From a bacterium (GTDB taxonomy: Bacteria > UBA8248): DNA of 64,000 nucleotides. The notes below the pieces were generated by a model. It ran no database searches and was not told the origin of the DNA. It worked only from the letters and a program-made list of their open reading frames with translations. The position numbers were made by a program, and so were the translations under genes. Below, one piece after another: positions 9,544 to 50,182 of the stretch. Positions within the stretch are counted from its first letter, which is position 1; every line of letters starts with the position of its first letter. The stretch is taken from positions 2,048,001 to 2,112,000 of the forward strand of contig OY843592.1 in assembly GCA_963692865.2 (NCBI GenBank). Direction: 5' to 3'.

Positions 9544-9981
9544 GGAGTTGTTGAAAAAGCCTCCCGGCGGGGTAAAGGCGCCCCCCCTGCCCCCCCCCTT
9601 GCCAGGGGTCAAACGCGAGTGAGGAGAGGCTGTTGGAAAAACCCTCTCCGCCTCACCCTGATTAGCGGCGAAGCCGCGTATCGAAGGGCGAAGTCCGCGC
9701 CTGCGGGTGTCAAACACGATTGATGAATGGGTGTCTGACGCGACCGAGAAGGGAGCGATTGCTCGGGATGACGCGCCCGACGGGCGCCCCCCCTCCTCGG
9801 TCGGGATTGGTCCGTAGGGGTCGCATATCATGCGACCCGGCCTTTTTTCGCCTCTCCGGCGACGGGCCGCATATTATGTCGGACATATATGTCCGACATA
9901 CAAAACCAACCCCCGACAAGGCGGCCAGAGCAGGTTGCTCCCATGGGATTTTCCCGTCAATGGGGCTTTTTCAACGGCCCG
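9544..9981. mobile_element. MITE-like mosaic with GGGGYTGTTGAAAAA-type ends and REP-like cargo
   Basis: Left ends at 9544 and 9626, right end TTTTTCAACGGCCCG ending 9981; internal palindromes recur in other intergenic loci. Confidence 0.7.
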
Positions 9982-10027
9982 GACAAGGGGGGGTAGGGGG
10001 GGGATTTTGCGGCGGCGGCCTTTTTTC

Positions 10028-10211
10028 CGTCATTCCGGCGTCGGAACCGACCGAGGAGGGAGGTCGAACCCGATTGATGAATGAGGGTTCGTCGGAATCC
10101 ATTTTACGCCTTTTGCCTCTCGTCGGGGTTCTCGCGCATCGGCGGGGAAGAAAACGCCGCCGTTCATTCACTCGCATCCGCAAATGGATTCCGGCTTTCG
10201 CCGGAATGACG
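10028..10211. repeat. inverted doublet of CGTC-type REP palindromes (CGTCATTCCGGCGAAAGCCGGAATCC)
   Basis: Close paralog, spacer included, at about 15288-15415; left arm interrupted by an insert at 10040-10093. Confidence 0.85.
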
Positions 10212-10459
10212 GCGGCGGTCCATTCCGGGGGAGGAGGGGGTGTTGAAAAAGCCTCACAGAGGGAGCGCACCGAATTTCACTCCCCCCTTGAGGGGGTTGT
10301 TGAAAAAACCGGACAGAGACAATTTGTTTGTAGGTCAGACATATATGTCTGACCTACAAACCTCTGCGAAACGAAACGCAGGGGCGGACCTGTGTGTCCG
10401 CTCGACACCGGAACAGGGTCTTTCAACAACCCTGACAAGGGGGGTAGGGGGGCTCTCTT

Positions 10460-11843
10460 GAGTTACGTTCAGAAGTTGTGTATGGGCTGAATTGAAGAAG
10501 GCGGCGCATCCTGCTGAAATAGGGTTTGCTAAATAGCCCGGTCATTCAGCACAAGGAGATGCGCCACCATGAGAGAAGATACGACGCTACCCTTTCGGAG
10601 TCCAGCGTTGCGCGACGAGTTGAGCGAACTGGTTCGCGCGGGCGCGCAGCGAATCATCCGCCAGGCGGTGGAGGCGGAGTTGGCGGCCTTTCTGGAAGAA
10701 CACGCCGATCACGACGCGCGGGGCCACCGCGCGGTGGTGCGCAACGGCTACCTGCCGTCGCGGGAGGTATTGACGGGAGTGGGTCCGGTGCGCGTCCGGG
10801 TTCCGCGGACGCGCGACAGGTCGGGTACGGGGCGGCGTTTCCGCTCGGAGCTTTTGCCGCCGTATCTGCGCAAGACGAGGCGCGTGGAGGCGGTGATACC
10901 GTGGCTGTACCTGAAGGGGGTATCGACGAACGACTTCGGCGAGGCGCTCACGGCGCTGTTCGGCGCGTCGGTGGGGGGTTTGTCCCCGGCGAGCGTTTCG
11001 CGGCTCAAGGAGGGTTGGGAGCGCGAGTACGCCGCGTGGCGCGAGCGGGACTGGGGTGTCGAGGAGTTCGTGTATCTGTGGGTGGACGGCATCTACATGA
11101 ACGTGCGCAGCGGGGAGCGGCGTTGTCTTCTGGTGGTCGTGGGCTGCGATGCGCGCGGCCGCAAGCGCTTCGTGGCCCTGGAACCGGGCTTCCGGGAATC
11201 GAAGGAGAGCTGGAAGGCGGTTTTGTTGCGCCTGCGGGAGCGGGGGGTGAAGGCGGCGAAGCCGGCGGTGGGCGACGGGGGGCTGGGATTCTGGTCGGCC
11301 CTGGCCGAGGTGTACCCCGAGACCCGGGCGCAGCGCTGCTGGGTTCACAAGACGGCGAACGTTCTCGACAAGCTGCCCAAAAGCGTTCAGAGCGAAGCGA
11401 GGCCGATGTTGTACGAGATGTGGGGGGCCGACACCCGCGCGCGGGCAGAGAGCGCGCTCGCACGCTTCTGCGCCACCTGGGAGGCGAAGTACCCCAAGGC
11501 CGTCGATTGCCTGGCGCGGGACCGAGAGGAGTTGTTCGCCTTCTACGACTTCCCGGCGTCGCACTGGCGGAGCATTCGGACGACGAACCCCATCGAGGCG
11601 ACCTTCGCCACCATCCGGCTGCGCACGGCGAAGACGCGGAACTGCCTGAGCGAGAAGTCGGCGCTGAGCCTCGCGCATCAACTCGCCATGAGCGCCGAGA
11701 AAAGGTGGGGGCGGCTGGGCGGCGTGCGTCATCTGGCGAATGTGGTCACCGACGTGAGGTTCGTCGATGGGGTGAGCGAAAAAGAAACCGGCAGGGAGGC
11801 CGCCGGACTCAGGACGGCCATACACAACATTTGACAGTAACTC
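10460..11843 (+). mobile_element. IS256-family insertion sequence, complete
   Basis: 26-bp IRs GAGTTACGTTCAGAAGTTGTGTATGG / GAGTTACTGTCAAATGTTGTGTATGG (22/26); 9-bp direct repeat GGCTCTCTT at 10451-10459 and 11844-11852. Confidence 0.95.
10569..11834 (+). CDS. IS256-family DDE transposase
   Basis: RNGY, YLKGVST, WVDG, GDG, QRCWVHK, TTNPIE motifs. Confidence 0.95.
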   Translation: MREDTTLPFRSPALRDELSELVRAGAQRIIRQAVEAELAAFLEEHADHDARGHRAVVRNGYLPSREVLTGVGPVRVRVPRTRDRSGTGRRFRSELLPPYLRKTRRVEAVIPWLYLKGVSTNDFGEALTALFGASVGGLSPASVSRLKEGWEREYAAWRERDWGVEEFVYLWVDGIYMNVRSGERRCLLVVVGCDARGRKRFVALEPGFRESKESWKAVLLRLRERGVKAAKPAVGDGGLGFWSALAEVYPETRAQRCWVHKTANVLDKLPKSVQSEARPMLYEMWGADTRARAESALARFCATWEAKYPKAVDCLARDREELFAFYDFPASHWRSIRTTNPIEATFATIRLRTAKTRNCLSEKSALSLAHQLAMSAEKRWGRLGGVRHLANVVTDVRFVDGVSEKETGREAAGLRTAIHNI

Positions 11844-11947
11844 GGCTCTCTTTGTCAGGGGGCAACAGCGATGCCCTTCGACGAGGACTTTTTCAACAAC
11901 CCCTCATCAGTCGAGATTTTCCTCGGCGGGGGGTTGAAATGCCGCTT

Positions 11948-11994
11948 GTAGGGACAGGCCCCCGCGCGTGTCCAAGGTCGCGACCTGTCCCTAC
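11948..11994. repeat. GTAG-type REP-like palindrome
   Basis: GTAGGGACAGGCCCCCG(C/T)G..TGTCC; related copies at 15091, 22984 and 49990. Confidence 0.8.
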
Positions 11995-12010
11995 GGAGAG
12001 AGTCCTCCGC

Positions 12011-12595
12011 TCACGCCTTCCAGGCTTCCGGCGGGGCCGCCGCGTCGCGCGGGTGGCCGTCTCGCGAGAGGCGATCCCGGAACCACTCCTCGTTCACCCG
12101 GTTCGTGTAGGGGTCCATGACGGCCATGTCGCAGAATATCTCGATGCAGTTGCCCGAGGGGTCCGCGATGTAGAGCGCGTGGTTCTCGCCCCAGAAGCCG
12201 TCGCCCTCGGGGTGCGTGGGGCTATGGATGGAGGGCCCCCAGAAAATTTCGATATCTTTTTCTTCCAGCCAGGACGCCCATTCCGCGAGTTGCGTCCGGT
12301 CTTCCACCTCGAACGCGATGTGGTGCAGGCCCGTCTGCAGGGAGAAGAAGGAGCGCTCCTCGGGCGGAGCGGGGCCTTCGCCCTCGGGCCAGAAGATGAG
12401 GTTCATGTCGTGGTGAAGCTCCGTGCACCGCATGAAGCAGAGCCCGAAGGGGAAATCGCCCACCGTGCCCGGCTCGAATATCTCCGAGATGGTGAAGCCC
12501 AGCGTGTTCACGTAAAAATCCTTGGCCGCCTCGATGTCGTGCACCTTGACGGCGGCGTGTTGGAGCCGCGTGAAGCCCCCGGATGGTCTCGGCAT
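12011..12595 (-). CDS. VOC family protein (extradiol dioxygenase-like)
   Basis: LQHAAVKV, HHDM, GLHHIAFEV, YIADPSGNCIE. Confidence 0.88.
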   Translation of the reverse strand: MPRPSGGFTRLQHAAVKVHDIEAAKDFYVNTLGFTISEIFEPGTVGDFPFGLCFMRCTELHHDMNLIFWPEGEGPAPPEERSFFSLQTGLHHIAFEVEDRTQLAEWASWLEEKDIEIFWGPSIHSPTHPEGDGFWGENHALYIADPSGNCIEIFCDMAVMDPYTNRVNEEWFRDRLSRDGHPRDAAAPPEAWKA

Positions 12596-12631
12596 GTGAA
12601 TTTCTCCTCCGTTCCTGTGAGTCGATGATAA

Positions 12632-13765
12632 TCAGTCGATGCAGGCCCATGAATCCCTGCCCAGGTCCCCCAGGCCCTCGCAGCCGTCCTCGGTGACGGC
12701 GACGGCGTCTTCAATCTTCACGTGGCCGACTTGCGCGTGGCGGATGTCGCACTCCACCGACACCACCATGCCCGCCTCTAAAGCGCGCTCCACATCGGGG
12801 CCGAAGCGCGGGAGTTCCTGTTGCACCATGCCGATGCCGTGCGCCTCGAAAACGCCTAAATCGGCGAAGCCCGTATCCGCGAACGCCTGGTGCCCCCGCT
12901 CGTGAACGGAGGCGCAGCTCGCCCCGGCGCGAATGGCGTCCCGGCAGGCGTCTACCGAGTGGAGACAGGCTTTATGCAATTCCTCGGCCAGGGCGGAGGG
13001 TTCGCCGCGCACCCCCATCCGGCAGATGTCGGACATGTAGCCCGCCTCGGAGCCGCCCGCGTCGATGTGGAGTATTTCTCCTCGCTCCCATATTTTATCG
13101 GACGGCTCGCGCCGCATGCCCGGCCCCGCCGCGGTGAAGGCGTAGTGGAAATGAAGGCCGCGCCGCACCATTTCCTCCTCCACCCTTCGCTCGATCCGCC
13201 GGGTCGTTACGCCGCGCGCGCCCTCCTGGAAGCCGGCCTGTATGGCTTCAGAATCCGCAAGCGCCGCGCGCCGGAATATCTCCAGTTCGTCCTCCCGCTT
13301 CACGGCGCGTAGTTCTTCCAGGATGGAGAGGGAATCGACGAACCGCGCGCCGGGGAGTTCGCTCTGGAGCGCCTCCATCGCGTCCACGGGCAGGAAGGCG
13401 CGCTCGACGGCGATGGTTCCTTTATCGAGGCCGCGCTTCCTGACGGCCTCGGCGGCCGTTTCCGCAGCGCCGACGGTTCCCCGCGCCTTCGTGTAGATGA
13501 CGTCGGGTATCCAGGTGTCCACCTCGTTTCGGGGCGACGCCTCGACGCGCCAAGCCACCTGAAAGGCGTTTTCGGGGTTTTCCCGCGGGATCCCCGCGAA
13601 GGGGAGGTACTGGCTCGGCCCGATGGCGGCCACCCGCTCGCGGAAGTGGAAGTAGTAGCCGCCCGTCAGGTAGCGGACGTTGTGGGGCGTGTGCGCGAGT
13701 ATGAGGTCGACGCCCGCCTCTTCCATCAGGCGCGCGAGTTTTTCCTCGTCGTACAGGGGCCGCAT
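12632..13765 (-). CDS. M24 family (Xaa-Pro peptidase/creatinase-like) hydrolase
   Basis: LRAVK..DE, HIDAGG, YMSDICR, HGIG, KIED. Confidence 0.9.
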   Translation of the reverse strand: MRPLYDEEKLARLMEEAGVDLILAHTPHNVRYLTGGYYFHFRERVAAIGPSQYLPFAGIPRENPENAFQVAWRVEASPRNEVDTWIPDVIYTKARGTVGAAETAAEAVRKRGLDKGTIAVERAFLPVDAMEALQSELPGARFVDSLSILEELRAVKREDELEIFRRAALADSEAIQAGFQEGARGVTTRRIERRVEEEMVRRGLHFHYAFTAAGPGMRREPSDKIWERGEILHIDAGGSEAGYMSDICRMGVRGEPSALAEELHKACLHSVDACRDAIRAGASCASVHERGHQAFADTGFADLGVFEAHGIGMVQQELPRFGPDVERALEAGMVVSVECDIRHAQVGHVKIEDAVAVTEDGCEGLGDLGRDSWACID

Positions 13766-14895
13766 CAGTCGACGACCACCCAGTCCTCACGCCCCAGGTC
13801 GCCCAGGGGCTCGTAGCCGTCCGACGTCACCGCCACGGCGTCCTCGACCTTCACGTAGCCCACCTCGGGGTGGCGGATGTCGGTCTCGATGGACACCACC
13901 ATGCCTTCTTCGAGCGCTCTCTCCACGCCGGGGCCGAAATAGGGCTGTTCGTGCGAGACCATGCCGATGCCGTGGATGATGAAGTTGCCGTACGCGCCGT
14001 GCTCGGTGTTCTTGAGATACGCCGCGCCCTTCTCGTATATGTCGCCGCACACCGCGCCCGGACGAATCTCCGCGCGCACGTAGTCCTGCGTTCCCAGGCA
14101 CGCCTTGTAGAGCTCGTCCGCCAGCGGCGTGGGCTCGCCGCGCACGCCCATGCGGCAGATGTCCGTCAGGTAGTCGGATTCCGAGCCGCCGGCGTCCAGG
14201 TGCAGCACCTCTCCTTTTTCCCACACCTTCTCGGAGGGGGCGCGCAGCATGCCCGGCCCCGCGCAGGCGAAGACCCACAGGAAGTGCAGGCCCCTGTCCG
14301 TCATGCCGCGCTCCACGGCGTGGGCGACGTCGCGCGTCGTGGCGCCGGGCGCCGCCGTCTCGAACGCCTCGCGGATGGCTTCCGCGTCCGCCTGGGAGAT
14401 GCGTCGGTAGATATCGATCTCCTCGGGCGTCTTGATGGCGCGAAGCTCCTCCAGGATCGGCAGCGCCTCCGTGAACGCCGCGTTCGGCAGCGCGCGCATG
14501 AGCGCGTCCTTGGCGGAGGAGGGGAGAAAGTTCTCCTCCACGGCGATGGTCCCGCCCCCCAGCCCGCGTTCCGCGATGGCGTCCGCGGCGTCCGCGGCGG
14601 CTTGCGCCGGCGTCCTCTGCGAGGGGATGAGTTCGGGTATCCAGAGGTTCTGGTCCTGCGCCTGGCCGAGTTCGCCGCTCCCGCCGATCAGGAACGCCTT
14701 CCCGGCGTCGCCGCGCGGGATGCCCGCCAGCGCCATGTACTGGCCGCGCCCCATGGACGTGAACCTCTCGTGAAAATGGAAGTAGTAGCCGCCGCACAAG
14801 TAACGCACGTTCTCGCGCGAGTTCGCGAGAACGAGGTCGACGCCCGCGTCCTGCATGAGGCGGTCCAGTTTTTCACCGTCATAGGGTGGCTGCAT
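13765..14895 (-). CDS. M24 family hydrolase (tandem paralog)
   Basis: LRAIKTPEE, HLDAGG, YLTDICR, HGIGMVSHE, KVED; start MQPPYD after RBS GGAGGA; TGATG overlap with the next gene. Confidence 0.9.
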   Translation of the reverse strand: MQPPYDGEKLDRLMQDAGVDLVLANSRENVRYLCGGYYFHFHERFTSMGRGQYMALAGIPRGDAGKAFLIGGSGELGQAQDQNLWIPELIPSQRTPAQAAADAADAIAERGLGGGTIAVEENFLPSSAKDALMRALPNAAFTEALPILEELRAIKTPEEIDIYRRISQADAEAIREAFETAAPGATTRDVAHAVERGMTDRGLHFLWVFACAGPGMLRAPSEKVWEKGEVLHLDAGGSESDYLTDICRMGVRGEPTPLADELYKACLGTQDYVRAEIRPGAVCGDIYEKGAAYLKNTEHGAYGNFIIHGIGMVSHEQPYFGPGVERALEEGMVVSIETDIRHPEVGYVKVEDAVAVTSDGYEPLGDLGREDWVVVD

Positions 14896-15027
14896 GGAAA
14901 ATCCTCCAATCCTTGTTCGCCCGGAGGCATCTGAAACAGTGGTTTGTCGTATCGCTTCATCCTCGCCCAGAACAGGGCGAGGGTCAATCCGAAACCCCGT
15001 GAAATCGAACGCCGCGCCGCCCGGTTC

Positions 15028-15595
15028 GGGGTTTTTGAAAAGGCCCTGATTTCGTGATTCGGCGAATGGAGCCAACCTGAGAGGGGGTTTGTAGGGACAG
15101 GCCCCCGTGCCTGTCCGAGATCGTGACCTGTCCGATGCCCCCGCGCCTGTCCCTGCGAAGCCAACCACGGGGATGGACATATCCGATACGGGCGGCCACG
15201 GAGGGTAGGGCGGCCCTAGGTCGAACTCCCCTCTTCGGGAAGTTCGACGCCCTGCTACGGGTGAATGCGGTTTTGATCGTCATTCCGGCGAAAGCCGGAA
15301 TCCATTTTTACGCCTTTTGCCTTTCGTCAGGATTCCCGCGCATCGGCGGGGAGTGAAACGCCGTCGTTCATTCACACGCATCCGCAAATGGATTCCGGCT
15401 TTCGCCGGAATGACGGCGGTGGTCAATTCCGAGCGAGGAGGGGGATGTTTGTAGGTAGCGCTCCCAAGAAGGGAGCGCTACAAATATGCGGCCCATGACG
15501 GGTGGCGAAAAAGGCCGGGTCGCATATATGTCGGACATATATGTCCGACATACACACAAACAATTTTTTTCTCTTCCGAGTTTTTCAACAACCCC
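15028..15595. mobile_element. MITE-like element carrying several REP families
   Basis: GGGGTTTTTGAAAAGG ... GAGTTTTTCAACAACCCC; GTAG and CGTC palindromes inside; no clear direct repeat. Confidence 0.7.
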
Positions 15596-15609
15596 GAATC
15601 ATAGCGATT

Positions 15610-16632
15610 TCAAGCGGTTAGGCCGAGTTCTTTTTTCTTCGCCTCCACGTCGATTCCGAAGAGCCGGGCCTGGTTCTCGCCCAGAATGTTTCGCTTGTCC
15701 TGCTCCGTGATGGGAGGATAGCCGTATCGTTCCTGGAGTTCCTCGTCGATCTCCATCTCCCAGAACCACTCGATCATCGGCTGGGGATTGCCGAGCAGGG
15801 GCGCTTCCGAACCCCAGAGGATTCTGTCGGAGCCCACGTCCCGAAGCAGCCTGCCCATGTATTCCTTGAACTGCCAGGGCGCGATGAGGGGCAGGTGCAT
15901 CGTGCCCGAGAGGACGAGCGCGACGTTCTCGAAGCGTGCGGCGATGTATACGCATTCCTCGAAGTAGGGGAGCGCGAGGTGGTGGATGGCGAAGGTGAGG
16001 TCGGGGAAATCCATCGCCGCCTGCTGGATGTCGAGCGGGGTCAGGTCTTCGAGCCGCGCGCGCGTGATGGGAAAGCCCTTGTGGTACTGGAACACGTTGA
16101 TTCCCAGCTCGCGTCCTCGCTCGTATATGGGATAGGCGAGTTCGGGGTCGTCGCATCGCCAGGAATTCCCGTCGATGTGGGCGTTGTAGAATTTCACCGA
16201 GCGCGCGCCCATTTCCGTGACCTGGCGCTCCAGTTCCTCGAGCGCGCCCTGCACGCTCGGATACTTGGGGTCCACCCCGCCGCAGAACAGGACGCGATCC
16301 GGATTCGCGCATGCGAATTCGTATTGCGCCTGAATGGGGGAGAAGCCCTCCTTGTAGACGTCGTAGAGCACGACGGCCTGCGCCATCGCCATGTCGGTCC
16401 CGGAATCCTCGAAGACCAGCTTGCCGAGCTCGCGCGAAGTCCACTTTTTGGCGAACCCGCCGATGGGGTCTCCGCCCGCGTAGAGGTCCTCCTGGCCCCC
16501 GGGGCGTCTTCCCTTGCCGATGCGCAGGTGCCAGAGGCGATCGAGGCCGCTGTCCGGGCGGGCGAGGTTCTCGTCCGACAGGTCGTACATGTGCACCACG
16601 TTGTCGAATACGAAGACGTCGCCGTTCAGCAT
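15610..16632 (-). CDS. amidohydrolase family (Amidohydro_2) protein
   Basis: DNVVH, HKG, IHH, ILWGSE, ILGENQARLFG; start MLNGDVF after AGAAGGGA. Confidence 0.88.
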   Translation of the reverse strand: MLNGDVFVFDNVVHMYDLSDENLARPDSGLDRLWHLRIGKGRRPGGQEDLYAGGDPIGGFAKKWTSRELGKLVFEDSGTDMAMAQAVVLYDVYKEGFSPIQAQYEFACANPDRVLFCGGVDPKYPSVQGALEELERQVTEMGARSVKFYNAHIDGNSWRCDDPELAYPIYERGRELGINVFQYHKGFPITRARLEDLTPLDIQQAAMDFPDLTFAIHHLALPYFEECVYIAARFENVALVLSGTMHLPLIAPWQFKEYMGRLLRDVGSDRILWGSEAPLLGNPQPMIEWFWEMEIDEELQERYGYPPITEQDKRNILGENQARLFGIDVEAKKKELGLTA

Positions 16633-16649
16633 TTGCGCATCCCTTCTAA

Positions 16650-16829
16650 GAGGTTGTTGAAAGAGCCGGATAGGAAAAATTAGTTTGTGTGTAGGTCGGA
16701 CATATATGCGACCCTGAATTTTTTCATTTTTCACCCACTACACGGGCCGCATATATGCGGCCCCTACAACAACCGCCCCTTCCCGGTTATGCGAAACACT
16801 CGTTCACTAGGGCTTCTTCAACTAGCCCC
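16650..16829. mobile_element. MITE-like element (180 bp) enclosing a REP doublet
   Basis: GAGGTTGTTGAAAGAGCC ... GGCTTCTTCAACTAGCCCC. Confidence 0.7.
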
Positions 16830-17040
16830 TCGGGTGGGTTTGCCGGTGAATCGTGCTAATTCCAAGCCTAAAATATCGCAAAAATCGCCGATAAGCCACG
16901 GGGTGGAGCAGGCTCCGATCCAAAAAAGAGGATTTTCCCGAATGCGGTTGACCATGCGCGCATGAATCTATACATTGCCACCCGGTTAGACGAATCAACC
17001 CTCTTGACATTGAGATTATTTGCTTTTGGGGGAGCAATTG

Positions 17041-17718
17041 ATGGGCCGGTTTGCGAAAGTCCTGCAATCATCGGTCGGCGCCAAGGTCGCCATGGCCGTC
17101 ACCGGGATTCTGTTGGTCCTGTTCATCATCGCCCACATGCTCGGCAACCTCCTGATGTTCGCAGGCCCCGAGGCGACGAACGCCTACGCCAAGGGCTTGA
17201 AGGACCTGGGCGCCTTGCTGTGGGTCGCGCGAATCGGCCTGCTGGTCGTGTTCCTGGTGCACATCGGCTCGGCGCTGCGTCTTTGGCGCATGAACCGCGC
17301 GGCCCGGCCGCAGGCCTACGCCGTCTCCGAATCCACGATGGTCACCTACGCGGGCCGCTCCATCGTGCTGACGGGCGCCCTGGTGCTGGCCTTCGCGGCG
17401 TATCACCTGCTTCATTTCACCCTGTTCGCCACGAACCCCGAATTCGCCGGGTTGCACGACGCGCAGGGCCGTCACGACGTGTACCGCATGGTGATTCTGG
17501 GATTCGGGAACACCGCGGTGTCGGGCGTGTATCTGGTTTCGATGATTCTTCTGGGGCTTCACCTGAGCCACGGCGTGACGAGCCTGTTCCAGTCGCTCGG
17601 GATCAACAATCCCTCTTACAACCCTTTGATCAAACGGCTGGGCCCCTGGAGCGGCGTCCTCGTAGCAATCGGCTTCATGGCGATTCCGCTGGCCGTCTTG
17701 GCGGGCGTGTTGAAATAG
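17041..17718 (+). CDS. sdhC: succinate dehydrogenase/fumarate reductase cytochrome b subunit
   Basis: 5 TM segments, HMLGN, HL.HG...FQSLG; upstream of the flavoprotein gene. Confidence 0.92.
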   Translation: MGRFAKVLQSSVGAKVAMAVTGILLVLFIIAHMLGNLLMFAGPEATNAYAKGLKDLGALLWVARIGLLVVFLVHIGSALRLWRMNRAARPQAYAVSESTMVTYAGRSIVLTGALVLAFAAYHLLHFTLFATNPEFAGLHDAQGRHDVYRMVILGFGNTAVSGVYLVSMILLGLHLSHGVTSLFQSLGINNPSYNPLIKRLGPWSGVLVAIGFMAIPLAVLAGVLK

Positions 17719-17742
17719 TTCTCCCCTGGTGAGGAGAAGGGT

Positions 17743-19668
17743 ATGGATACGAACGGCAGCCTGAACGGAAACGTCCCCGCAGGTCCTCTGGCGGAGAAGT
17801 GGGACAATCACCGCTTCAACATGAAGCTCGTGAACCCGGCCAACAGACGCCGCTACAAGGTGATCGTGGTGGGTTCGGGGCTGGCCGGAGGGGGCGCCGC
17901 GGCCACGCTGGGCGAGTTGGGCTACAACGTGGATTGCTTCTGTTATCAGGACAGCCCCCGGCGTGCGCACTCCATCGCGGCCCAGGGCGGGATCAACGCC
18001 GCCAAGAACTACCAGAACGACGGCGACAGCACCTACCGGCTCTTCTACGACACCATCAAGGGGGGTGATTTCCGCTCCCGCGAGTCGAACGTGTACCGGC
18101 TGGCGCAGGTGAGCGCGAACATCATCGACCAGTGCGTCGCCATGGGCGTGCCCTTCGCGCGCGAGTACGGCGGCCAGCTCGCGAACCGCTCCTTCGGCGG
18201 GGCGCAGGTGTCGAGAACCTTCTACGCCAGGGGCCAGACGGGCCAGCAGCTTCTCCTGGGCGTGTATGCGGCCCTGAGCCGGCAGATAGCGGCCGGTTCG
18301 GTGAAAATGCACTCGCGCACCGAGATGCTCGAAGTCGTCCTGGTCGACGGGCAGGCGAAGGGCATCGTCACCAGAAACCTCGTGACAGGCGAGATCGAAA
18401 AACACGCGGCGGACGTGGTCATCATGGCGACGGGCGGTTACGGCCCGGTGTTCTACCTCTCCACGAACGCGATGGGGAACAACATCACCGCCTCGATACG
18501 CGCGTACATGAAGGGCGCTTATTTCGCCAACCCCTGCTACACGCAAATCCACCCCACCTGCATTCCGGTTTCGGGGGATCACCAGTCGAAACTCACGCTC
18601 ATGTCCGAATCGCTCAGAAACGACGGGCGCATCTGGGTGCCGACCAAGGAAGGCGACCCGCGCGGCCCCGCCGAGATACCCGAGGACGAGCGCGATTATT
18701 ACCTGGAGCGCATGTACCCGAGCTTCGGGAACCTGGCGCCTCGCGACATCGCCTCGCGCGCGGCGAAAAGGGCGTGCGACGAGGGGCGCGGCGTGGGCGA
18801 TACGGGTCTGGGCGTTTATCTCGACTTCACGGACGCCATCAAGCGCCTGAGTTTGCCCGTGGTGCAGCAGCGCTACGGCAACCTCTTCGACATGTACGAG
18901 AAGATCACCGGCGAGAACGCCTATCAGGTGCCCATGCGCATCTATCCGGCCATCCACTACACGATGGGCGGCCTGTGGGTCGACTACAACCTGATGAGCA
19001 ACATCCCCGGCCTGTTCGTGCTGGGAGAGTCGAATTTTTCGGATCACGGCGCGAACCGCCTGGGCGCGAGCGCCCTCATGCAGGGGCTGGCGGACGGCTA
19101 CTTCGTCGCGCCCTACACGGTGGGGAACTACCTCGCGAGCCTGACGCCGGGCGATTATTCCGCCGATTCCTCGGAATTCACGCAGGCCGCCGACGACGTG
19201 AAGGACAGGATCAGGCGCGTGCTCTCGGTCGACGGCAAGCGCACGGTCACCTCGTTCCACCGCGAACTGGGTCTCATCTGCTGGGATTACTGCGGCATGG
19301 CCCGCACCGACCAGAGCCTGACCAAGGCGCTCGACCTGATTCCCGCGCTCAAGGAGGAATTCTGGGAGAACGTCTCCGTGCCCGGAGGGGGCGACGAGTT
19401 GAACCCCGAGCTCGAAAAGGCGCTGCGCGTGGCCGATTTCCTCGAGTTTGCGGAACTCATGTGCTACGACGCGCTCATGCGGAAGGAATCCTGTGGCGGC
19501 CACTTCCGGGAGGAATACCAGACGCAGGAGGGCGAAGCCCTTCGCGACGATGAGAATTTCAGCCACGTGAGCGCGTGGGAGGCGCCGCGCAACGGCGGAC
19601 GCCCGATACTGCACAAGGAAAATCTCGAATTCGAAGAGGTTGAATTCAGCGTGAGGAGTTACAAGTAA
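17743..19668 (+). CDS. sdhA: succinate dehydrogenase/fumarate reductase flavoprotein subunit
   Basis: [42 protein letters not shown]. Confidence 0.96.
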
Positions 19669-20414
19669 TGGACCTCACCCTCAGGGTTTGGCGGCAAAAG
19701 GACGCTCGGTCGACGGGCAGGATCGAGACCTACCAGGTGAGTGGCATCATTCCCGACATGTCTTTCCTGGAGATGCTCGACGTGACGAACGAGCGTCTCA
19801 TCGAGGAGGGGGAGGAACCCATCGCCTTCGACCACGATTGCCGCGAGGGAATCTGCGGCATGTGCTCGCTCGTCATCAACGGGAAGGCGCACGGCGGTTT
19901 CTCCGGAACGACCACCTGCCAGCTTCACATGAGAAAATTCAGCGACGGCGACACCATCACGATCGAGCCCTGGCGGGCGAGCGCCTTCCCGATCCTACGG
20001 GACCTGGTGGTGGATCGCACCTCGTTCGACCGCATCATCCAGGTGGGCGGGTTCATCTCCGCGAACACGGGGGGCGCGCCGGACGGCAACGCGGTCCCCA
20101 TCCCCAAGCCCGACGCGGACGCGGCCATGGACGCGGCCGCCTGCATCGGCTGCGGCGCCTGCGCGGCGTCGTGCCCGAACGGCTCGGCGATGCTCTTCGT
20201 GGCGGCGAAGGTTTCCCACCTCGCGCACCTGCCCCAGGGAGTGCCCGAACGGGGGCAGAGGGTGCTCAATATGGTCGCCCGGATGGATGAGGAGGGTTTC
20301 GGCAACTGCACCAACCACGCCGAGTGCGAGGCCATGTGCCCCAAGGACATCAGCATCAGCCACATCGCCAAGATGAACCGCGAGTTCATCCGCGCGACCG
20401 TGAGGGGCGATTAA
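19668..20414 (+). CDS. sdhB: succinate dehydrogenase/fumarate reductase iron-sulfur subunit
   Basis: [34 protein letters not shown]. Confidence 0.96.
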
Positions 20415-20440
20415 GCTTTACTTTTCATATACTTATAAGG

Positions 20441-20470
20441 AGGCTCCCCCGAGCGGGGAGCCTTTTTCTT
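20441..20470 (+). terminator. intrinsic terminator after sdhB
   Basis: AGGCTCCCC-CGAGC-GGGGAGCCT followed by a T tract. Confidence 0.85.
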
Positions 20471-20548
20471 GGCGGGAGAACGGTTTGAGCCGGGCAGAAG
20501 TCGGCGGAGCCGCCCGCCGAGCCGCTCGGTCCCCGCATCATCCATGCG

Positions 20549-21307
20549 TCATGCCATGGGAATCATATAGCGCCGCATGAGCCTGTGGATGGTCATGCGG
20601 AAGAGCTGGTCGGTGATGAGGCCGAACGTGCCCAGCATCAGGAAGCCGACGAACATCTCCGCGGGCGCGATGATGTTCGTGCTCTGCATGATGAGGAAGC
20701 CGATGCCCTGGTCGGCGGCCAGCATCTCCGCGGCCACGACGCCCATGAAGGAGAAGCCCAGCGCGATCCGCAGTCCGGTGAGGATGTGGGGCCAGGCCGA
20801 AGGCAGGACGACGCGCACGAAGACGTCCCCCTTGCGCGCGCCCAGGCAAAGAGCGGCCCGCACCCGAATCTGCGGGGTGGAGGCAACGCCCGCGGCGGTG
20901 TTGAACAGCACCGCGATCCCCGCGGCGTAGGAGATGATGAAATACTTTCCGATCTCGCCGATGCCGAAAATAGAGACGACCAGCGGAATGAGGGCCACCG
21001 GCGGGATGTTCCGGCAGAACTCAAGCGGCGGTTCGATGAGGTCCCGGGCCAGGCGAATCGCCCCGGTCGCCACCCCGACCACGATTCCGATAAAACACCC
21101 CAGGGCGTAGCCCAGGACGATGCGCTTCAGGCTCGCTCCGAGGTGGGCGAACAACACGGCGTTCCAGGTCATCTCGGCGAGTTTTTCGGCCACCGAGACG
21201 GGAGAGGGAACGATAGCGGCTTCGAAGAAGGTTCCGCTCGACGCCCACCAGACCCCGATGAACGCCAGGATAGAAACCGACAGCCTCGCCAGCTTTCCCG
21301 CATACAT
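20549..21307 (-). CDS. ABC permease (SsuC/TauC/NtrB-like)
   Basis: IPPVALIPL, AALCLGA..VVLPSAWP, VVAAEM; start MYAGKL. Confidence 0.9.
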   Translation of the reverse strand: MYAGKLARLSVSILAFIGVWWASSGTFFEAAIVPSPVSVAEKLAEMTWNAVLFAHLGASLKRIVLGYALGCFIGIVVGVATGAIRLARDLIEPPLEFCRNIPPVALIPLVVSIFGIGEIGKYFIISYAAGIAVLFNTAAGVASTPQIRVRAALCLGARKGDVFVRVVLPSAWPHILTGLRIALGFSFMGVVAAEMLAADQGIGFLIMQSTNIIAPAEMFVGFLMLGTFGLITDQLFRMTIHRLMRRYMIPMA

Positions 21308-21330
21308 TCGCCCCGGCCTCCCTTTCCGCC

Positions 21331-22098
21331 TCAGTCGAACGCCGCCGTCTGCAGCATGTAGCGCCGCATGAGACGGCCGATGGTGAACTGGAAGGCGCGA
21401 TCCGTGACGAGGCCGATCAGGCCCAGCAGGAACAGGCCCGAGAACATCTGCTCGGGAAGCAGCATGTTCCGGCTCTGCATGATGAGGTAGCCCACGCCGG
21501 ACTCGGCCGCGATCATCTCCGCGGCCACCACCCCCATGAACGCGAAGCCGAGCGCGACCCGAAGCCCGGTGAGGATGAACGGCCAGGCAGAGGGCAGCAC
21601 CACGCGCGTGAAGATTTCCCAACGCCCCGCGCCCAGGCACATGGCCGCGCGGACGCGAATCTGGGGGGTGGACGCCACCCCCGCTGCGGTGTTGAAGACG
21701 ACCGGAATGATGGTCGAATAGATGATGACGAAATACTTGCTGGGCTCCTCCAGGCCGAAGGCGTTCACCGCCAGCGGAATGATGGCGACCGGCGTAATGT
21801 TGCGCACGAACTGAAGGGGCGGTTCGAGCATGTCTTCGGCAATCCGGATCCGCGCGACGGCGACCCCCGTGAGAATCCCCAGGACGGACCCGAACGCGTA
21901 ACCGACGATCACGCGCCGGAGGCTGGCCCAGGCGTGAAAGAGTATCTCGCCCTCCGCCGTCATCTCCCAGAGGTTCACGGCCACCTTGTGCGGCGGGGGC
22001 ACCAGGATCGGGTTGAAGACGGCGCCGCTGCTCAGCCACCACAGGGCGAGCGCACAGGCGACCGATAGCGTTCTCAGAAAAAACTTCCGGGGGTTCAC
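21331..22098 (-). CDS. ABC permease (SsuC/TauC-like), paralog
   Basis: AAMCLGA..VVLPSAWP, VVAAEMIAAESGVG. Confidence 0.9.
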   Translation of the reverse strand: MNPRKFFLRTLSVACALALWWLSSGAVFNPILVPPPHKVAVNLWEMTAEGEILFHAWASLRRVIVGYAFGSVLGILTGVAVARIRIAEDMLEPPLQFVRNITPVAIIPLAVNAFGLEEPSKYFVIIYSTIIPVVFNTAAGVASTPQIRVRAAMCLGAGRWEIFTRVVLPSAWPFILTGLRVALGFAFMGVVAAEMIAAESGVGYLIMQSRNMLLPEQMFSGLFLLGLIGLVTDRAFQFTIGRLMRRYMLQTAAFD

Positions 22099-22880
22099 CG
22101 CGCGCGCATCCTCTGTACTTCTTCGTCGATGAGCGACTCGACCCGGCTGTACATGGCGGCGAAATCGGGATTGGACGGAGAGCGGGGCTCCTCCAGGTCG
22201 ATCTGAAAGATCTCCTTGATCCCCGCCTCCGGCCCGGCCGTCATCACCGCCAGGTGGGTGCTCAACAGGAGCGCCTCGAAGATGTCGTGGGTGATGTAGA
22301 AGATGGTCTTGCCCGTCTCGTCCCAGATCTTGCGGAATTCGACCTGAAGGTGTTTCTTCGTGATCGCGTCCAGCGCCGCGAACGGCTCGTCCATGAGGAG
22401 GATGTCCGGGTCGTTCGCCAGCGCGCGGGCGATCTGGATGCGCTGCTTCATCCCGCCCGAGAGTTCAAAGGGAAACTTCCCGCCGTCGGCGTCGAGGCCC
22501 ACGAGCCGAAGATACCTGTCGGCCAGCTCCTTGCGCGCCGGGGCGCCGAGGCGGGCCATCTTCGGGCCGAACTCCACGTTTTCGCGCGCGTTCATCCAGG
22601 GGAAGAGGGCGTTGCTGACGTCCTGGAAGATGACCGTCCTGTCCGTTCCGGGTCCGGTGACGGGGTTGTCGTCGAGGGAAACGCCTCCCGTCGTCGTCCC
22701 TTCAAAGCCGGCGACGATGTTGAGGAGGGTGGATTTGCCGCACCCGCTCGGCCCGAGGAGAGTGAAAAAAGCCCCCCGCTCCACTGTCAGGGTGACGTCC
22801 CGCAACACCTGCGCGACGCCCCCGTCGGCGCGGTCAAAATCCTTGCCTACGCCCTCCAGGCGTAAGACCCGCCAGTTCAC
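22095..22880 (-). CDS. ABC ATP-binding protein (SsuB/TauB-like)
   Basis: GPSGCGKST, LSGGMKQR, LLMDEPF; GTG start after GGAGG. Confidence 0.92.
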   Translation of the reverse strand: MNWRVLRLEGVGKDFDRADGGVAQVLRDVTLTVERGAFFTLLGPSGCGKSTLLNIVAGFEGTTTGGVSLDDNPVTGPGTDRTVIFQDVSNALFPWMNARENVEFGPKMARLGAPARKELADRYLRLVGLDADGGKFPFELSGGMKQRIQIARALANDPDILLMDEPFAALDAITKKHLQVEFRKIWDETGKTIFYITHDIFEALLLSTHLAVMTAGPEAGIKEIFQIDLEEPRSPSNPDFAAMYSRVESLIDEEVQRMRAR

Positions 22881-22937
22881 ACCGCCTCCCCGTCCCCGCC
22901 CCCGGCCGCCGTTTGGCCGGCCGGAGGCGGGGGAAAC

Positions 22938-23122
22938 CGCGCTGTTGAAAAACCCCTCGTGGGCCCCTGCAAGTAAAGAGTTTGTAGGGACAGGCCCCCG
23001 TGCCTGTCCGAGTGCGGTGGGAGGACACACAGGTCCTCCCCTACAAGAAGCATCGCGTTTTGACCCGTAGGGGCGGCCCTATGTGTCCGCCCGGTCTCGA
23101 AAGAGGCCTTTTCAACAGGCCC
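22938..23122. mobile_element. MITE-like element (185 bp) inside the ABC operon
   Basis: CGCGCTGTTGAAAAA ... TTTTCAACAGGCCC flanked by AAAC on both sides; GTAG REPs inside. Confidence 0.75.
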
Positions 23123-23144
23123 AAACCGCGTTTTCGTCCCGCGC

Positions 23145-24134: not shown

Positions 24135-24296
24135 TGCTCATCCTCCTTGTTGTGATTGCCTCGAAAAACGAACATCGTCCGCAACTTCCCTGGACGAGCC
24201 CGTGTAGCCTATGCTCCGGTTATCCGGGGCAGCCGCCTGGATTCGCTGAAAAATGCCCGCGTTTCATGCCGCGCTTCGCCTTCCTCCCGTACAAAG

Positions 24297-25652: not shown

Positions 25653-25897
25653 AAGTCCTCTCCCTCTCCTGGCCGGGCTGCCGCCCGGCGAACACGGCCT
25701 GCGAAGAGACGACGGCGATAACGGGGCCCTGCGCATGAAGCCGAAACGAGGTGAAAACGAAACCCCTCCCCGATTCCTCATCGGGCGCTCGCAATCTCAA
25801 GCGCGCTTTATTTTCAGTGTGTTTTTGATCCTAGCAGAATCAATGCGCGAATCAAACCACGCGCGACGCATCTTCCCTTTCGGAATATCGGGTGATG

Positions 25898-26043
25898 GGG
25901 GTGTTGTGAAAGCCCCGATTTCGTGATTTGGCGCATGCAACCGACCGGGGAGGGAGGAGACATCGCTCCTCGCGTGAGGGGGTTGTTGCCCCCCATCGAG
26001 AGTGTTTGCCGGAATGACGAGCAAAGGCGAAACCCCTGGATTC
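25898..26043. repeat. degenerate MITE end plus REP remnants
   Basis: GGGGTGTTGTGAAAGCCCCGATTTCGTGATTTGGCG matches the module at 15028; GCCGGAATGACG half-site. Confidence 0.6.
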
Positions 26044-26149
26044 CACATTCACTGCCGTCTTGTCGGAAATGATGCCGGCATGAGGGAGGAAAATCGCCCG
26101 GCAGGCCCGAAGAGCGCCCCGGCCCTTACGCCGGCCGGGGCTTCTTCGC

Positions 26150-27421: not shown

Positions 27422-27827
27422 GATGTCTCCTCGAAGGGGTTTTCTCATATGGGCCGGCGGGGGCGTCGTCCGCGCCGGTTCGACAAGCGGTGTCCATCCG
27501 TATCCTTATCATTTTATCAGGCCTGGATGATACCACGACGCAGGCGCGAACGACGGCGCCCCGAGTGCCGCGCCGAGCGCTAGGCGGTGCGTCCCGGGGA
27601 GGTCGGCCTCGGCCGCGTCGCCAGGATGAGCCGCGAGTTCGTCCGCGCGAGCGTGAGAGGCGATAAGGTTTTACTCATCGGCCGGTTACGGTGGGGCTCC
27701 CCCGCACGGGGAACCTTTTTTCATTGGCCGGGGAAATACTGGAGTTCATCCGAAAACATCGGATCGAATGCATCGCCGAAATCGCCGGTGTCAGGCGGAG
27801 AAGAAACAACCAAGACATTCGCATGGT

Positions 27828-27855
27828 TTGACAATCAACGGGTTGTTGCTAGAAT
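27828..27855 (+). promoter_or_regulatory. sigma70-like promoter
   Basis: TTGACA-N16-TAGAAT with extended TGn. Confidence 0.6.
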
Positions 27856-36426: not shown

Positions 36427-36852
36427 GGGGTTGTTGGAAAAGCCACGCAGGAGAAAAGCAGAGGGGTTTGTAGGTCAGACATATATGTCTGACATATCAT
36501 GCGGCCCGTTCGCGGGAGGCATGAAAATCCGGGTCGCATGATATGCGACCCCTACACTTGCGTTGCAGATGGGGTCGCCTATGCACAATCGGGCGCCATA
36601 TCACCCTCACCCTGAGTAGCCGCCGAAGGCGGCGTATCGAAGGGCGAGGGGAGTCGAACGCCTCGCGCCGGGCGAGAAGGCATCCTTCGATACGCGGCTT
36701 CGCCGCTACTCAGGATGAGGCGGAGGGGGGTTTTGCACCAGTCCTGCACATGCGTCCCTTTGCTTTTGCCCGTCATTCCGGTTTTCGCCGGAATGGCGGG
36801 CAAGGCGAAAATCATTCCCTCTCTCGTTAATCGGGGCTTTTTCAACAGCTCC
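36427..36852. mobile_element. MITE-like element (426 bp) carrying several REP families
   Basis: GGGGTTGTTGGAAAAGCC ... GGCTTTTTCAACAGCTCC flanked by GCTTCG on both sides. Confidence 0.8.
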
Positions 36853-41882: not shown

Positions 41883-41957
41883 TGGCTCCGGCGGTAGGAT
41901 TCGAACCTACAACCCATCGGTTAACAGCCGATTGCTCTGCCGTTGAGCTACGCCGGA
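41883..41957 (-). tRNA. tRNA-Asn(GTT)
   Basis: TCCGGCGTAGCTCAACGGCAGAGCAATCGGCT-GTT-AACCGATGGGTTGTAGGTTCGAATCCTACCGCCGGAGCCA; cloverleaf, encoded CCA. Confidence 0.98.
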
Positions 41958-47880: not shown

Positions 47881-48873
47881 TCAGCTTCCCGCTTTCGCCT
47901 TGCGCCACAGGTTCCCGACGCGACGTCCGCGCATGAGACCGAAGCGAAAAAGGAGATAGCCCGGCGCGCCGAACCAAAGTCCCTGGGCCTCGCCGCCCAA
48001 AGCCGCGTTCATCATATCCGCAACGAGGCTACCAAGCCAGAAGGAAACCACCAGGATCGCCGCCTCCTCGGCGGCGCGCCCGAGATTTCTGGCGAATTGC
48101 CTTTGTCTGGCCCGAAAGGCGTCGCGCTCCGCCTTGACGCCGACGATCATGGGCGCGAGTCCGCGCCGCCATCCGTGGGATATCACCATGAGGAAATGGC
48201 CGATCATGAAGACGACGAGGAACAGCATCACCAGAAAATGGAGGAACCTGCTCGACTGATAACCCCCGAAAAGCCATGTCAACCACCCGAACTGGACGGG
48301 TTTCAGGATGGCGAGGCCCGTCAGGACGGTGAGCACGCCCGCCAGTACGACGACGTTGTACGCAATTTTTTGAATCGGGTTGAACTTCCCCTCTCCGGGG
48401 GAACGGTGAAAGGTCTTGATCGGGTGAAGGAGCATCTCCTTCGCGCCGGCGAAATCCGCTTTCTTAATCCGGTAGTGCCTCCCTTCTTCCGTCAGGAGGA
48501 GCAGGAGCAGGAAGATCAATCCGTTGATGGTGTAGGGCCACATGAGGGCGAAGTGCCAGCGCAGCGCGCCCGCGAGCCACCTTCCGATGCCGAAGGTCTT
48601 CGTGAGGCCCTGGACGAACACCCTGTAATCGGCGCCCAGGTTGACGGCGCGCGGGTCGGCCTGGGTTTCCGTCCCCCGCAGCGCTTCGAAGATGGCCTCG
48701 GGGTTGGGCCTGTCCGGCCCGAACGCGGGGTAGGCCCACCATATCTGAAGCCCGCTCGCCATCATCAGGAGCAGGAGGGGGACGTTCAGCCAATGGGTGA
48801 TCCTTAAGAGCGATGAATAGGGATATGCGGGGGCGTCCGGGGTTTTCGGGGTCGTTTCTTCGGTTTCCATCAT
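47881..48873 (-). CDS. cytochrome b/b6-domain membrane subunit (hydrogenase-cyt-b/YdhU type) with extra C-terminal TMs
   Basis: RITHWLN, WHF, FNPIQK.AY, RFLHF..GH. Confidence 0.88.
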   Translation of the reverse strand: MMETEETTPKTPDAPAYPYSSLLRITHWLNVPLLLLMMASGLQIWWAYPAFGPDRPNPEAIFEALRGTETQADPRAVNLGADYRVFVQGLTKTFGIGRWLAGALRWHFALMWPYTINGLIFLLLLLLTEEGRHYRIKKADFAGAKEMLLHPIKTFHRSPGEGKFNPIQKIAYNVVVLAGVLTVLTGLAILKPVQFGWLTWLFGGYQSSRFLHFLVMLFLVVFMIGHFLMVISHGWRRGLAPMIVGVKAERDAFRARQRQFARNLGRAAEEAAILVVSFWLGSLVADMMNAALGGEAQGLWFGAPGYLLFRFGLMRGRRVGNLWRKAKAGS

Positions 48874-49391
48874 TCGGCGAGCAGCTTCATGATCATCGCT
48901 TCGGTGCGCTCGTGATTGCCCTCGCCGATCGTCTTGAAGCGTACGACGCCCTTCTTGTCGATCAGGTATTTCGTGGGCCAGAAGCGGTTTTCATAGGCTT
49001 TCCAGTTGGTGAAGTCGTTGTCCATCACGACGCGGTATTTGATGCCGAGCTTGGCCATGGCGTCTGCGACGTTCTCTTTTTTCCTGTCGAAGTTGAACTC
49101 GGGCGCATGGTTCCCGATGACGACCAGCCCCTTCTCCTCATAGCGCTCGTGCCACGAACGCAGCGTGGGGATCTCCCGCACGCAATTGATTCAGGCGAAC
49201 GTCCACATGTCGAGGAGAACGACCTTGCCGCGCAGGTCGGCGAGTTTCACGGGTTCGCCGCCCAGCCAGGGACCGCCCTTGAACTCGGGCGCCTGCGCGC
49301 CGGGTCCGAGGCCCGATGCGCCCGCCTGGTAAAACGTCCAGAAAACGGCGAGAAGGGCGACGGCGATGATGCAGGTGAGGGTTCGCTTCAT
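48870..49391 (-). CDS. TlpA/DipZ-like exported redoxin, probable selenoprotein (UxxC)
   Basis: The 49191-49391 and 48870-49181 ORFs are in frame: LRGKVVLLDMWTFA-TGA-INC-VREIP...HAPEF...DND...NRFWP; TGA at 49191-49193. Confidence 0.85.
49163..49183 (-). promoter_or_regulatory. candidate bacterial SECIS hairpin
   Basis: GCGTG-C-GGG-AGAT-CCC-CACGC starting 7 nt after the in-frame TGA. Confidence 0.6.
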
Positions 49392-49457
49392 CGTGATCTC
49401 CTGGGAACAAGACGGCCTGAGAACACTTTAGGAGAAGGTTTGAGCGGATGCAAATAC

Positions 49458-50182
49458 GGGGCTGTTGAAAAAGGCTTGGAGAGCGATTCTGGTTGTGTGC
49501 ACGCTTTTGAATTTCACTCCCCCCTTGAGGGGGCTGTTGAAAAACCCTCGTCTTCGATCCCCGCAACCCGCCGACGCCTCTTTCCTCATCCTGAGTAGGC
49601 GCGTAAGCTCCGTATCGAAGGATGGGGGAACGCATCTGACCAGCGGGACGCGAATTTCGCCCTTCGATACGCGGCTTCGCCGCTACTCAGGGTGAGGCGG
49701 AGCGGCGGGCTGCGCAGGGCGAGGAGGGGATGGCGCCGCATCGGACTTTTTCAACAACCCCTTGAGGGTCAGGCTTCCCGAGGGGAAAGCCCGACGAAGA
49801 GGCCGAGCCCTTGGGCGAAGGCCGATTCGGTGGGGGGTAAAACGCATTATGTCTCCATTCCGAATTCTACCCCCCACCAGTTCGCTTTCGGGCTTACGCC
49901 CTCAGCTCACTGTCGGTCTTCCCCGAGGGAGACCGACCCTCAAGGGGGGAGTGAATCTTGTATCCCCCGGTCGGCGACATGATGCTCCCGTAGGGACAGG
50001 CCTCAGTGCCTGTCCTGATTGCAATCATCCTGTAAAGGGACAACCACGGAGGGTTGTCCCTACACCGCGACTCCTCATTCATCGGACCTTTTCAACAACC
50101 CCCTCAAGGGGGGAGTGATTTTCTCTCTCGTCGGTCGAGTACATACGACAAGTCTGGAAACCAGGGGTTTTTCAACAGCCCC
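49458..50182. mobile_element. composite MITE-like element (725 bp)
   Basis: Perfect 15-bp ends GGGGCTGTTGAAAAA / TTTTTCAACAGCCCC; 4-bp direct repeat ATAC (49454-49457, 50183-50186). Confidence 0.88.
49530..49761. mobile_element. nested MITE-like element (232 bp)
   Basis: GGGGCTGTTGAAAAA ... TTTTTCAACAACCCC with TTGAG on both flanks, inside a CACTCCCCCCTTGAGG palindrome. Confidence 0.85.

Follow-up and report, generated by a model that had tools for sequence, protein, structure and literature searches.

How does one short palindrome come to stand inside another, in the place of a single arm? The question arises from a stretch of 64,000 nucleotides (C1:2048001-2112000, hereafter the window) of a 4.15-Mb genome that has 61% G+C and is assembled in 8 contigs. 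The genome is that of a sponge-associated bacterium, and the public sequencing runs that contain window sequence are labelled sponge or reef metagenomes. Between the long open reading frames (ORFs) of the window sit copies of the commonest repetitive extragenic palindrome (REP) of this genome, and several are interrupted by micro-hairpins with GTC...GAC ends. An original prediction, made from the window alone, held that such hairpins replace exactly 7 nt of their hosts and took them for footprints, left at each locus, of an unrecognised hairpin-targeted editing process. All the coordinates it named carry the sequences it described. Editing locus by locus is not borne out: the interrupted copies are amplified members of known repeat families, whose flanks and spacers recur from place to place. 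In the explanation that we prefer, and to which we give slightly better than even standing, the micro-hairpins are themselves short palindromic repeats of the REP kind, each interrupted copy is a chimera of one REP within another, and the chimeras were then amplified, template switching being the likeliest event at the joining.

A palindrome in place of one arm

The host repeat, here called A, is a stem of 7 bp with a GTAG tag and an AT-rich loop of 6-7 nt. Its intact reference copy lies at 9814-9838 of the window, and the original prediction had named intact copies at 9814, 16744 and 36531. The tag is exact in 270 of 291 A halves. The guest, here called B, is a 20-nt palindrome with the same stem length and loop as A, for example at 36474-36493; standing alone, it has a tag on either side, as at 10330-10357. 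Genome-wide, B has 133 sites, far more than chance would give, and the reversed control pattern has none. The heptamers at the two ends covary, as had been claimed: among heptamers beside AT-rich loops genome-wide, the two B arms match as complements in 118 pairs and fail to in 16, the two A arms match in 215 and fail to in 4, and an A arm is joined to a B arm in 113 cases.

What B replaces is always the arm of A next to the tag, 7 nt long. Parsing gave 378 arrays: 222 intact A, 98 with B followed by the loop and the distal A arm, 37 with B alone and 21 single-arm hybrids. Many of the 37, on reading, are chimeras with a degenerate loop, and true solo copies number about a dozen. In no array are both A arms kept along with B. 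At 616 distal-A-arm anchors, the interval between the loop and the nearest tag upstream of it tells the same, being 7 nt in 221, 20 nt in 79 and 31 nt in 13, with rarer classes of 30 nt (3 anchors), 23 nt (3) and 22 nt (1); the remaining anchors are longer or have no tag. The loops after B are of the same kinds as those of A, the commonest one being present in 75 of 104 cases with B and in 148 of 291 with A. Like the original prediction, we saw no target duplication at copies of A that contain B. In GTAG-tagged hosts generally, every substituted hairpin comes directly after the tag.

Two short identities bracket the replaced arm. On one side stands the tag, with one further G, and on the other the first 3-4 bases of the loop, which resemble the far-side tag of B; natively, B is flanked by the tag and by its complement, or by versions of these that differ in one base. 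In one copy (C1:1246688) the far-side tag of B is itself fused in register with the A loop.

Chimeras as amplified families

Most A REPs are paired in inverted orientation, about 23 nt apart, into doublets (REPINs). Genome-wide, 233 such doublets were found, with spacers of 8-45 nt. Both ends are intact in 77. In 117, one end and one only has B, in some cases slightly mutated, and about 28 doublet ends bear another hairpin insert, of 31 nt. Not one of the 233 has two B ends. Independence of the ends (117 of 466 with B, or 0.25 per end) would predict about 15 such doublets, and the Poisson probability of finding none is about 4e-7. This is the strongest argument against frequent, independent replacement at each locus, and the one-end-only pattern agrees with the copying of a single chimeric lineage or of a few. 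At no fewer than 8 loci one and the same REPIN is found, in which the 31-nt hairpin stands opposite a B end and the spacer and 25-nt left flank are unchanged. Identical flanks and spacers at many loci, the absence of B from both ends at once, and the presence of chimeras in other species together identify these copies as amplified repeat subfamilies, rather than as fresh footprints made locus by locus.

Alternatively, double-B forms may have been lost. Since B is its own reverse complement, two copies of it are direct repeats, and a deletion between them would leave a doubly tagged solo palindrome, as seen about a dozen times. At one locus the flanks of the window's solo B (10330-10357, a 28-nt perfect palindrome including the tag on both sides) enclose a 198-nt segment with a REPIN that has one B end; this is a single case.

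Examples lie in the window. In the REPIN at 9814-9901, which folds well as single-stranded DNA (z -6.8), the left half is an intact A (tag 9814-9817, hairpin 9818-9838) and in the right half B, at 9878-9897, replaces the tag-proximal arm beside a degenerate tag at 9898-9901; B forms a hairpin of its own. The REPIN at 36470-36555 is built the other way round, with B (36474-36493) for the left tag-proximal arm and an intact right half (36531-36555), and also folds well (z -7.0). At 15451-15553 both tag-proximal arms are replaced, the left by a doubly tagged 27-nt hairpin (15455-15481) and the right by B (15530-15549). Finally, the left half of the REPIN at 16691-16767 has one B arm for one A arm, and the right half is intact. 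The hybrid arm is at 16695-16701, and the earlier description of it as a single heptamer swapped 7 for 7 is correct.

This last REPIN lies within a block of about 190 bp bounded by imperfect terminal inverted repeats (TIRs), which is absent from the orthologous site in three relatives. Blocks with imperfect inverted repeats that carry REPINs occur in the window (16651-16832) and at many other loci; their ends are built on a 10-nt T-rich motif with 434 occurrences in the genome, both strands counted. It is the whole TIR-bounded block that is present or absent between species, and REPINs here often travel within such larger units.

Chimeras in the genus

Within the genus, 16 of the 22 other genomes have B; outside it, none of 18 has. 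The control pattern is found in none. Chimeric junctions occur in 10 of the 22, with 1-9 copies each, as against 110 here, and two more genomes of the genus have chimeric junctions with a 6-nt loop. Thus, the architecture is older than this species and has been expanded in it.

The comparison of orthologous loci took in three intergenic regions of the window, with as many as five genomes, and the REPIN at 16691-16767 proved to be missing from three relatives together with its TIR-bounded block. Starting from the relatives, 16 B loci of two of them were examined: 15 gave BLAST matches here with both flanks, the flanks lay together in about 7 (5 distinct places), and three were read. Two of the three are cases of presence and absence; in the third a REPIN stands in both species, with different spacer and flanks. 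Logan contigs from four runs of one study, searched over positions 8500-28400 of the window, end at repeats, and the joints listed there are cross-matches between repeats.

RAYT-like transposases beside the repeats

The original prediction had seen no candidate enzyme in the window. That holds for the window, whose only transposase is of the IS256 family, and fails for the genome, which has two intact genes and one fragment for Y1 transposases resembling REP-associated tyrosine transposases (RAYTs), all of them outside the window. A profile search of the genome with Pfam Y1_Tnp (PF01797) had returned no match, a false negative, as two ORFs pass the cut-off when scanned as proteins. Relatives gave weak Y1_Tnp matches, and tblastn with their proteins led to the three loci here. 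The intact ORFs have 177 and 174 codons. They score 24.1 and 26.2 bits against the Pfam cut-off of 23, with the C-terminal half alone aligning, and match the NCBIfam model for REP-associated tyrosine transposases with E-values of 3.7e-16 and 5.8e-18 (59-65 bits, below its 80-bit cut-off). HUH and Tyr motifs, the putative catalytic residues of the family, are visible in the translations of C1:1531610-1532140 and C1:17499-18020. A sequence search of the PDB with the first protein, RAYT-1, gave no match.

Each RAYT-like copy adjoins a different GTAG-tagged REP family. RAYT-1 (C1:1531610-1532143) lies inside a cluster of 3.5 kb in which A REPs and A/B chimeras number more than 12, and its homologues in three other species, 61-67% identical, are all flanked by A-type REPs; the surroundings of the homologue include A/B chimeras in one species and no B at all in another. 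A is the cognate repeat of RAYT-1, and B may be a further substrate of the same enzyme. Searching the assembled genome contigs with RAYT-1 gave 5 distant loci (32-60% identity), of no use for context. Across the genus, B is present in 15 of 17 genomes that have a RAYT-1 homologue and in 1 of 5 that have none; the original prediction had proposed a test of such co-occurrence. These genomes are related and not independent, so that the counts are no statistical proof.

The array around RAYT-1 (C1:1529300-1532700) is a REPtron, a RAYT-like gene amid dense REPs, and contains about five repeats of one flank of more than 60 nt, which after the tag leads variously to an intact A, a B chimera, a single-arm hybrid or a solo B. 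About 500 bp downstream of RAYT-1 lies a tyrosine-recombinase gene (C1:1532677-1533177, minus strand).

Other hairpins, other hosts, other lengths

Is 7 nt a general rule? For B in A it is, 7 being the length of the arm, and it is roughly so in two other hosts; elsewhere 2-5, 4 and 9-11 nt are replaced. In A itself, the 31-nt insert leaves the last 2-4 bases of the arm in place and replaces 2-5 nt. A second family of GTAG REPs, called type C, has an intact reference copy at 23067-23092 on the plus strand. A 26-nt hairpin in REPs of this type replaces 4 nt, and single cases replace 7, 9-10 or about 11 nt. Among the single cases is the 31-nt hairpin at 31652-31682, directly after the tag of the C-type REP at 31644-31693 (plus strand). 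The 7-nt replacement originally proposed there needs two mismatches beside the junction, and the parsimonious reading is 9-10 nt. In another C-type REP (15205-15258, plus strand), a 29-nt GTC...GAC hairpin at 15220-15248 sits in the apical part. One 23-nt hairpin follows the tag of two further families, types D and F, where about 2-5 nt are replaced, as read off printed sequences.

The automatic script for replaced lengths was partly reliable, and it is cited only where its printed examples could be checked by eye. It treated rare hybrid arms as 'intact' variants of A, its hairpin filter discarded most composites in CGTC REPs, and its rows for D-type hosts were unusable.

The first of the two other 7-nt hosts is the CGTC REP, a palindrome with CGTC at one end, whose 10-11-nt core is intact at 271 of 307 anchors (fold z -4.6). 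In 26 of the 307 a 31-nt hairpin replaces 7 nt, or 8 if a neighbouring C-to-T change is counted; 8 copies carry a composite of 54-59 nt, and in a few copies the 4-nt loop alone is replaced and the whole stem kept. A member of the composite class is the CGTC REP at 10028-10100 (plus strand), with two nested hairpins at 10040-10093 standing for the loop and 3 nt of the 3' arm, 7 nt in all. This 54-nt composite had been correctly placed inside a CGTC-tagged REP; its fold (z -0.98) is no better than that of shuffled sequences. The intact form at 15278-15303 is one inverted end of a unit of about 138 bp (15278-15415), resembling a miniature inverted-repeat transposable element (MITE), both of whose ends are intact CGTC REPs and which is highly repeated in relatives.

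The second is the end of another MITE-like element, present in the window in a short form (31773-31935), each end of which is a small 9-bp hairpin, and in a long form (49758-49953), with GTC...GAC hairpins in both inverted ends (49768-49795 and 49912-49937). The long form and its relatives have the marks of MITEs, that is, terminal inverted repeats, no coding content and many copies, with about 65 hairpin-bearing ends. The first of its hairpins had also been said to replace 7 nt. Sequence after it differs from the 'intact' copy too, so that the two do not align cleanly; another copy in the genome supports the 7-nt swap. Where copies share one anchor, 4 hairpin-bearing and 16 short ones differ by just such a swap. 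Over all MITE ends, hairpin-bearing ones (about 65-70) outnumber short ones (about 33), so that the change may have gone either way.

A broad spread of lengths, or a 7 that merely equals the length of the arm, had been named beforehand as what would undercut the recombination idea. Lengths here range from 2 to 11 nt and 7 is the arm length in A; three hosts nonetheless share a replacement of 7 nt.

Several window elements stand beside these. A small hairpin at 9709-9739 has a conserved loop of 12-13 nt and a variable stem; about 10 perfect-stem copies exist, and its loop family also includes the inner hairpin of 10040-10093. Hairpins with a conserved purine-rich loop resembling a ribosome-binding site, and with stems that vary freely and in compensation, occur at 10052-10064, at 15430-15445 and genome-wide, alone, in tandem and nested in CGTC REPs. 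The IS256-family (Mutator-type) transposase has 421 codons (window 10460-11844, gene 10569-11834, Pfam E 4e-66); at least 7 copies about 90% identical to it are found in one relative and several in others.

How the arms may have been joined

In the amplified-chimera explanation, B would have been copied into an A REP between the two short identities that bracket the tag-proximal arm, namely the tag and the first loop bases that resemble B's far-side tag. As these identities bracket one arm, the swap spans exactly one arm of 7 nt. Copy-choice template switching on extruded hairpins would be the likeliest route; RAYT cutting and rejoining at tags would be another. The chimeric REPIN, which keeps one intact A REP, would then have been amplified like any REPIN, often within TIR-bounded blocks. 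Deletion between two loop copies could have given the 7-for-7 hybrids, and collapse between two B copies the doubly tagged solo B. The other pairs of hairpin and host would be separate events of the same general kind, with other junctions.

Several observations weigh against this account. Firstly, the spacers of B chimeras fall into at least 10 classes, an asymmetric spacer can have B to either side of it, and B variants, with a central A:T or G:C pair, show almost no linkage to the variant of the A arm beside them (30/21/24/38, chi-square about 4.5), which speaks for many origins of the chimera or for frequent exchange of parts between REPINs; inverted REPIN halves could also flip the spacer. 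Secondly, the exact tag is less well kept beside B (77 of 104) than beside A (270 of 291), which would agree with the B-bearing end having lost its working role. Thirdly, relatives are 88-92% identical in genes and their intergenic blocks differ wholesale, and among the orthologous loci compared we saw neither a donor-to-recipient event nor a clean change between A and B in situ. Fourthly, the B-bearing end has no replichore bias (55 versus 57, Fisher p 0.85), so that a strictly strand-specific one-step process leaves no trace. Finally, three unrelated hosts, the A REP, the CGTC REP and the MITE end, each lose 7 nt that start with G and end with C. As 7 is the arm length in A alone of the three, arm length cannot account for them all, and the common G...C stretch keeps a site-specific reading alive at low probability. 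The cumulative GC skew of C1 follows a clean curve, lowest near 0.71 Mb and highest near 2.54 Mb, likely the origin and the terminus.

The joining could also be the work of the RAYT itself. As a Y1 (HUH) transposase, it would cut after the tag and at the boundary between arm and loop, and ligate an excised B hairpin into the gap. Hairpins in GTAG hosts all stand directly after the tag, B has the stem length and loop of A and could be bound by the same enzyme, chimeras flank RAYT-1 in two species, and B tracks the RAYT homologue across the genus. Nevertheless, the right-hand junctions in GTAG hosts vary (2-5, 4, 7, 9-11 nt), replacements of about 7 nt are also found in CGTC REPs and MITE ends with no GTAG at the junction, the B-bearing end has no replichore bias, and Y1 transposases are not known to delete target bases on insertion. 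We consider this swap possible but rather unlikely, and template switching or repeat-to-repeat conversion at the common tag and loop is favoured over direct cut-and-paste by the RAYT.

In a more general form, the RAYT or another enzyme acting on single-stranded DNA would exchange cassettes on folded REPs, a 7-nt G...C segment leaving and a self-folding mini-palindrome entering. A hairpin-directed enzyme of this sort is a plausible agent; the exchange itself we regard as unlikely. Should it be true, it would be the long-sought mechanism by which one REP class replaces another (the 'orthoswitch', discussed below), and REPINs would be changed at one end only because further copying requires an intact REP.

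Very unlikely, in our judgement, is the original proposal that an integron-like or tyrosine-type recombinase replaces a 7-nt core independently at many loci. The loss of 7 nt, G first and C last, from three unrelated hosts speaks for it, and 11 matches to the Phage_integrase domain exist in the genome, one of them the gene about 500 bp from RAYT-1. However, half of the REPINs have one B and none of the 233 has two, identical chimeras recur with identical flanks, and other pairs of hairpin and host replace other lengths. Moreover, in tyrosine recombination a core of 6-8 nt is common to both partners and is kept, not replaced.

We give even less weight to the idea that the hairpins are tiny non-autonomous transposons that enter loops or arms with a small target deletion, mobilised in trans by, for example, an IS110 enzyme. 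It draws on six identical IS110-family copies of about 1.5 kb, all outside the window (C1:12430, 834657, 1780654, 1824463, 1958172 and 3895871). In four of the six a single GTC...GAC hairpin variant, located at a MITE end, is split between the two flanks, and in a fifth the left flank comes from it; the insertion point is the hairpin loop, and one uninterrupted copy of this variant exists. The hairpin is the target of IS110 and not its derivative. IS110 ends are unlike those of the hairpins, the hairpin belongs to the inverted end itself in about 65 MITE ends, and no IS110-family insertion is known to delete target bases. Hairpins as remnants of IS110 ends were considered separately and rejected, as the IS ends do not match them.

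Least credible of all is that the modules are kept by selection as DNA or RNA structures (terminators or translation-control hairpins), the chimeras reflecting that selection: compensatory stem changes in several families and the purine-rich loop like a ribosome-binding site would suit it, but an Rfam scan of the window matched only one tRNA gene (41886-41957, minus strand), the composite at 10028-10100 folds no better than shuffles, the copy number, tags and RAYT link fit selfish repeats, and wholesale presence or absence between species speaks against a function conserved by locus.

Comparison with known systems

Integron attC sites are imperfect palindromes of about 57-141 nt with 7-nt end boxes, recombined as folded single strands. 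The micro-hairpins share with attC sites and their integrase IntI the imperfect palindrome and the 7-nt end boxes, and the likeness ends there. Their ends are GTC/GAC and not GTT/AAC (GTTRRRY/RYYYAAC in attC), they are 20-31 nt long, they lie inside other repeats and not after ORF cassettes, there are no gene cassettes, and host bases are replaced where a common core would be exchanged. The integron analogy is therefore abandoned.

IS110/IS1111-family elements target REPs and hairpins, and the six identical copies in the loop of one hairpin variant are of this kind. IS110 uses the hairpin as a target, and nothing here shows that it makes or moves hairpins. Insertion of IS elements into REPs is also mentioned in the part of PMC3733652 that we consulted.

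Close to the present case are the REPIN/RAYT systems, or REPtrons, as described in the consulted parts of Bertels and Rainey 2011 (PMC3116915) and Nunvar et al. 2013 (PMC3686654). Common to both are the GTAG tag, the stem-loop of 7 bp, extragenic copies by the hundred, doublets whose inverted halves stand about 23 nt apart, a RAYT-like gene amid its own REPs, and several REP classes each beside its own RAYT copy. In contrast to those systems, as far as these parts describe them, in half of the doublets here another palindrome has taken the place of one REP's tag-proximal arm, and many REPINs ride in larger TIR-bounded blocks.

In the part consulted of Di Nocera et al. 2013 (PMC3733652), REPs are divided into GTAG and CGTC super-families, of which the CGTC REPs have no known transposase; sub-families have alternative complementary stem residues, and REPs lie inside other small palindromes in three species. 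Our genome is alike in having both tags and such sub-families. It differs in that the REPs described there sit in otherwise intact palindromes, whereas here the host loses one arm or its apex. A limited literature search, covering parts of PMC3733652, PMC3686654 and PMC3116915, found no description of a REP arm replaced by another palindrome.

For the annotator there is a warning in this: the intergenic regions of this genome are mosaics of nested selfish palindromes, and odd hairpins there should not be taken for regulatory signals without further evidence.

REPINs and RAYTs are among the commonest and oldest repeat systems of bacteria, and how REP classes rise and are displaced is called unknown in the consulted part of Nunvar et al. 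2013 (PMC3686654). The same part describes the orthoswitch, in which one REP class is replaced by another around the same RAYT lineage, by a mechanism that is likewise called unknown. Unlike the cases described there, this genome seems to have kept physical intermediates: in about half of its REPINs, and at one end only, a new hairpin stands after the tag and the distal arm of the old REP persists as a vestige. The abundance of these apparent intermediates, together with the one-end-only rule, makes this a useful system for the study of REP class turnover, and the chimeras may show how one REP class comes to be replaced by another.

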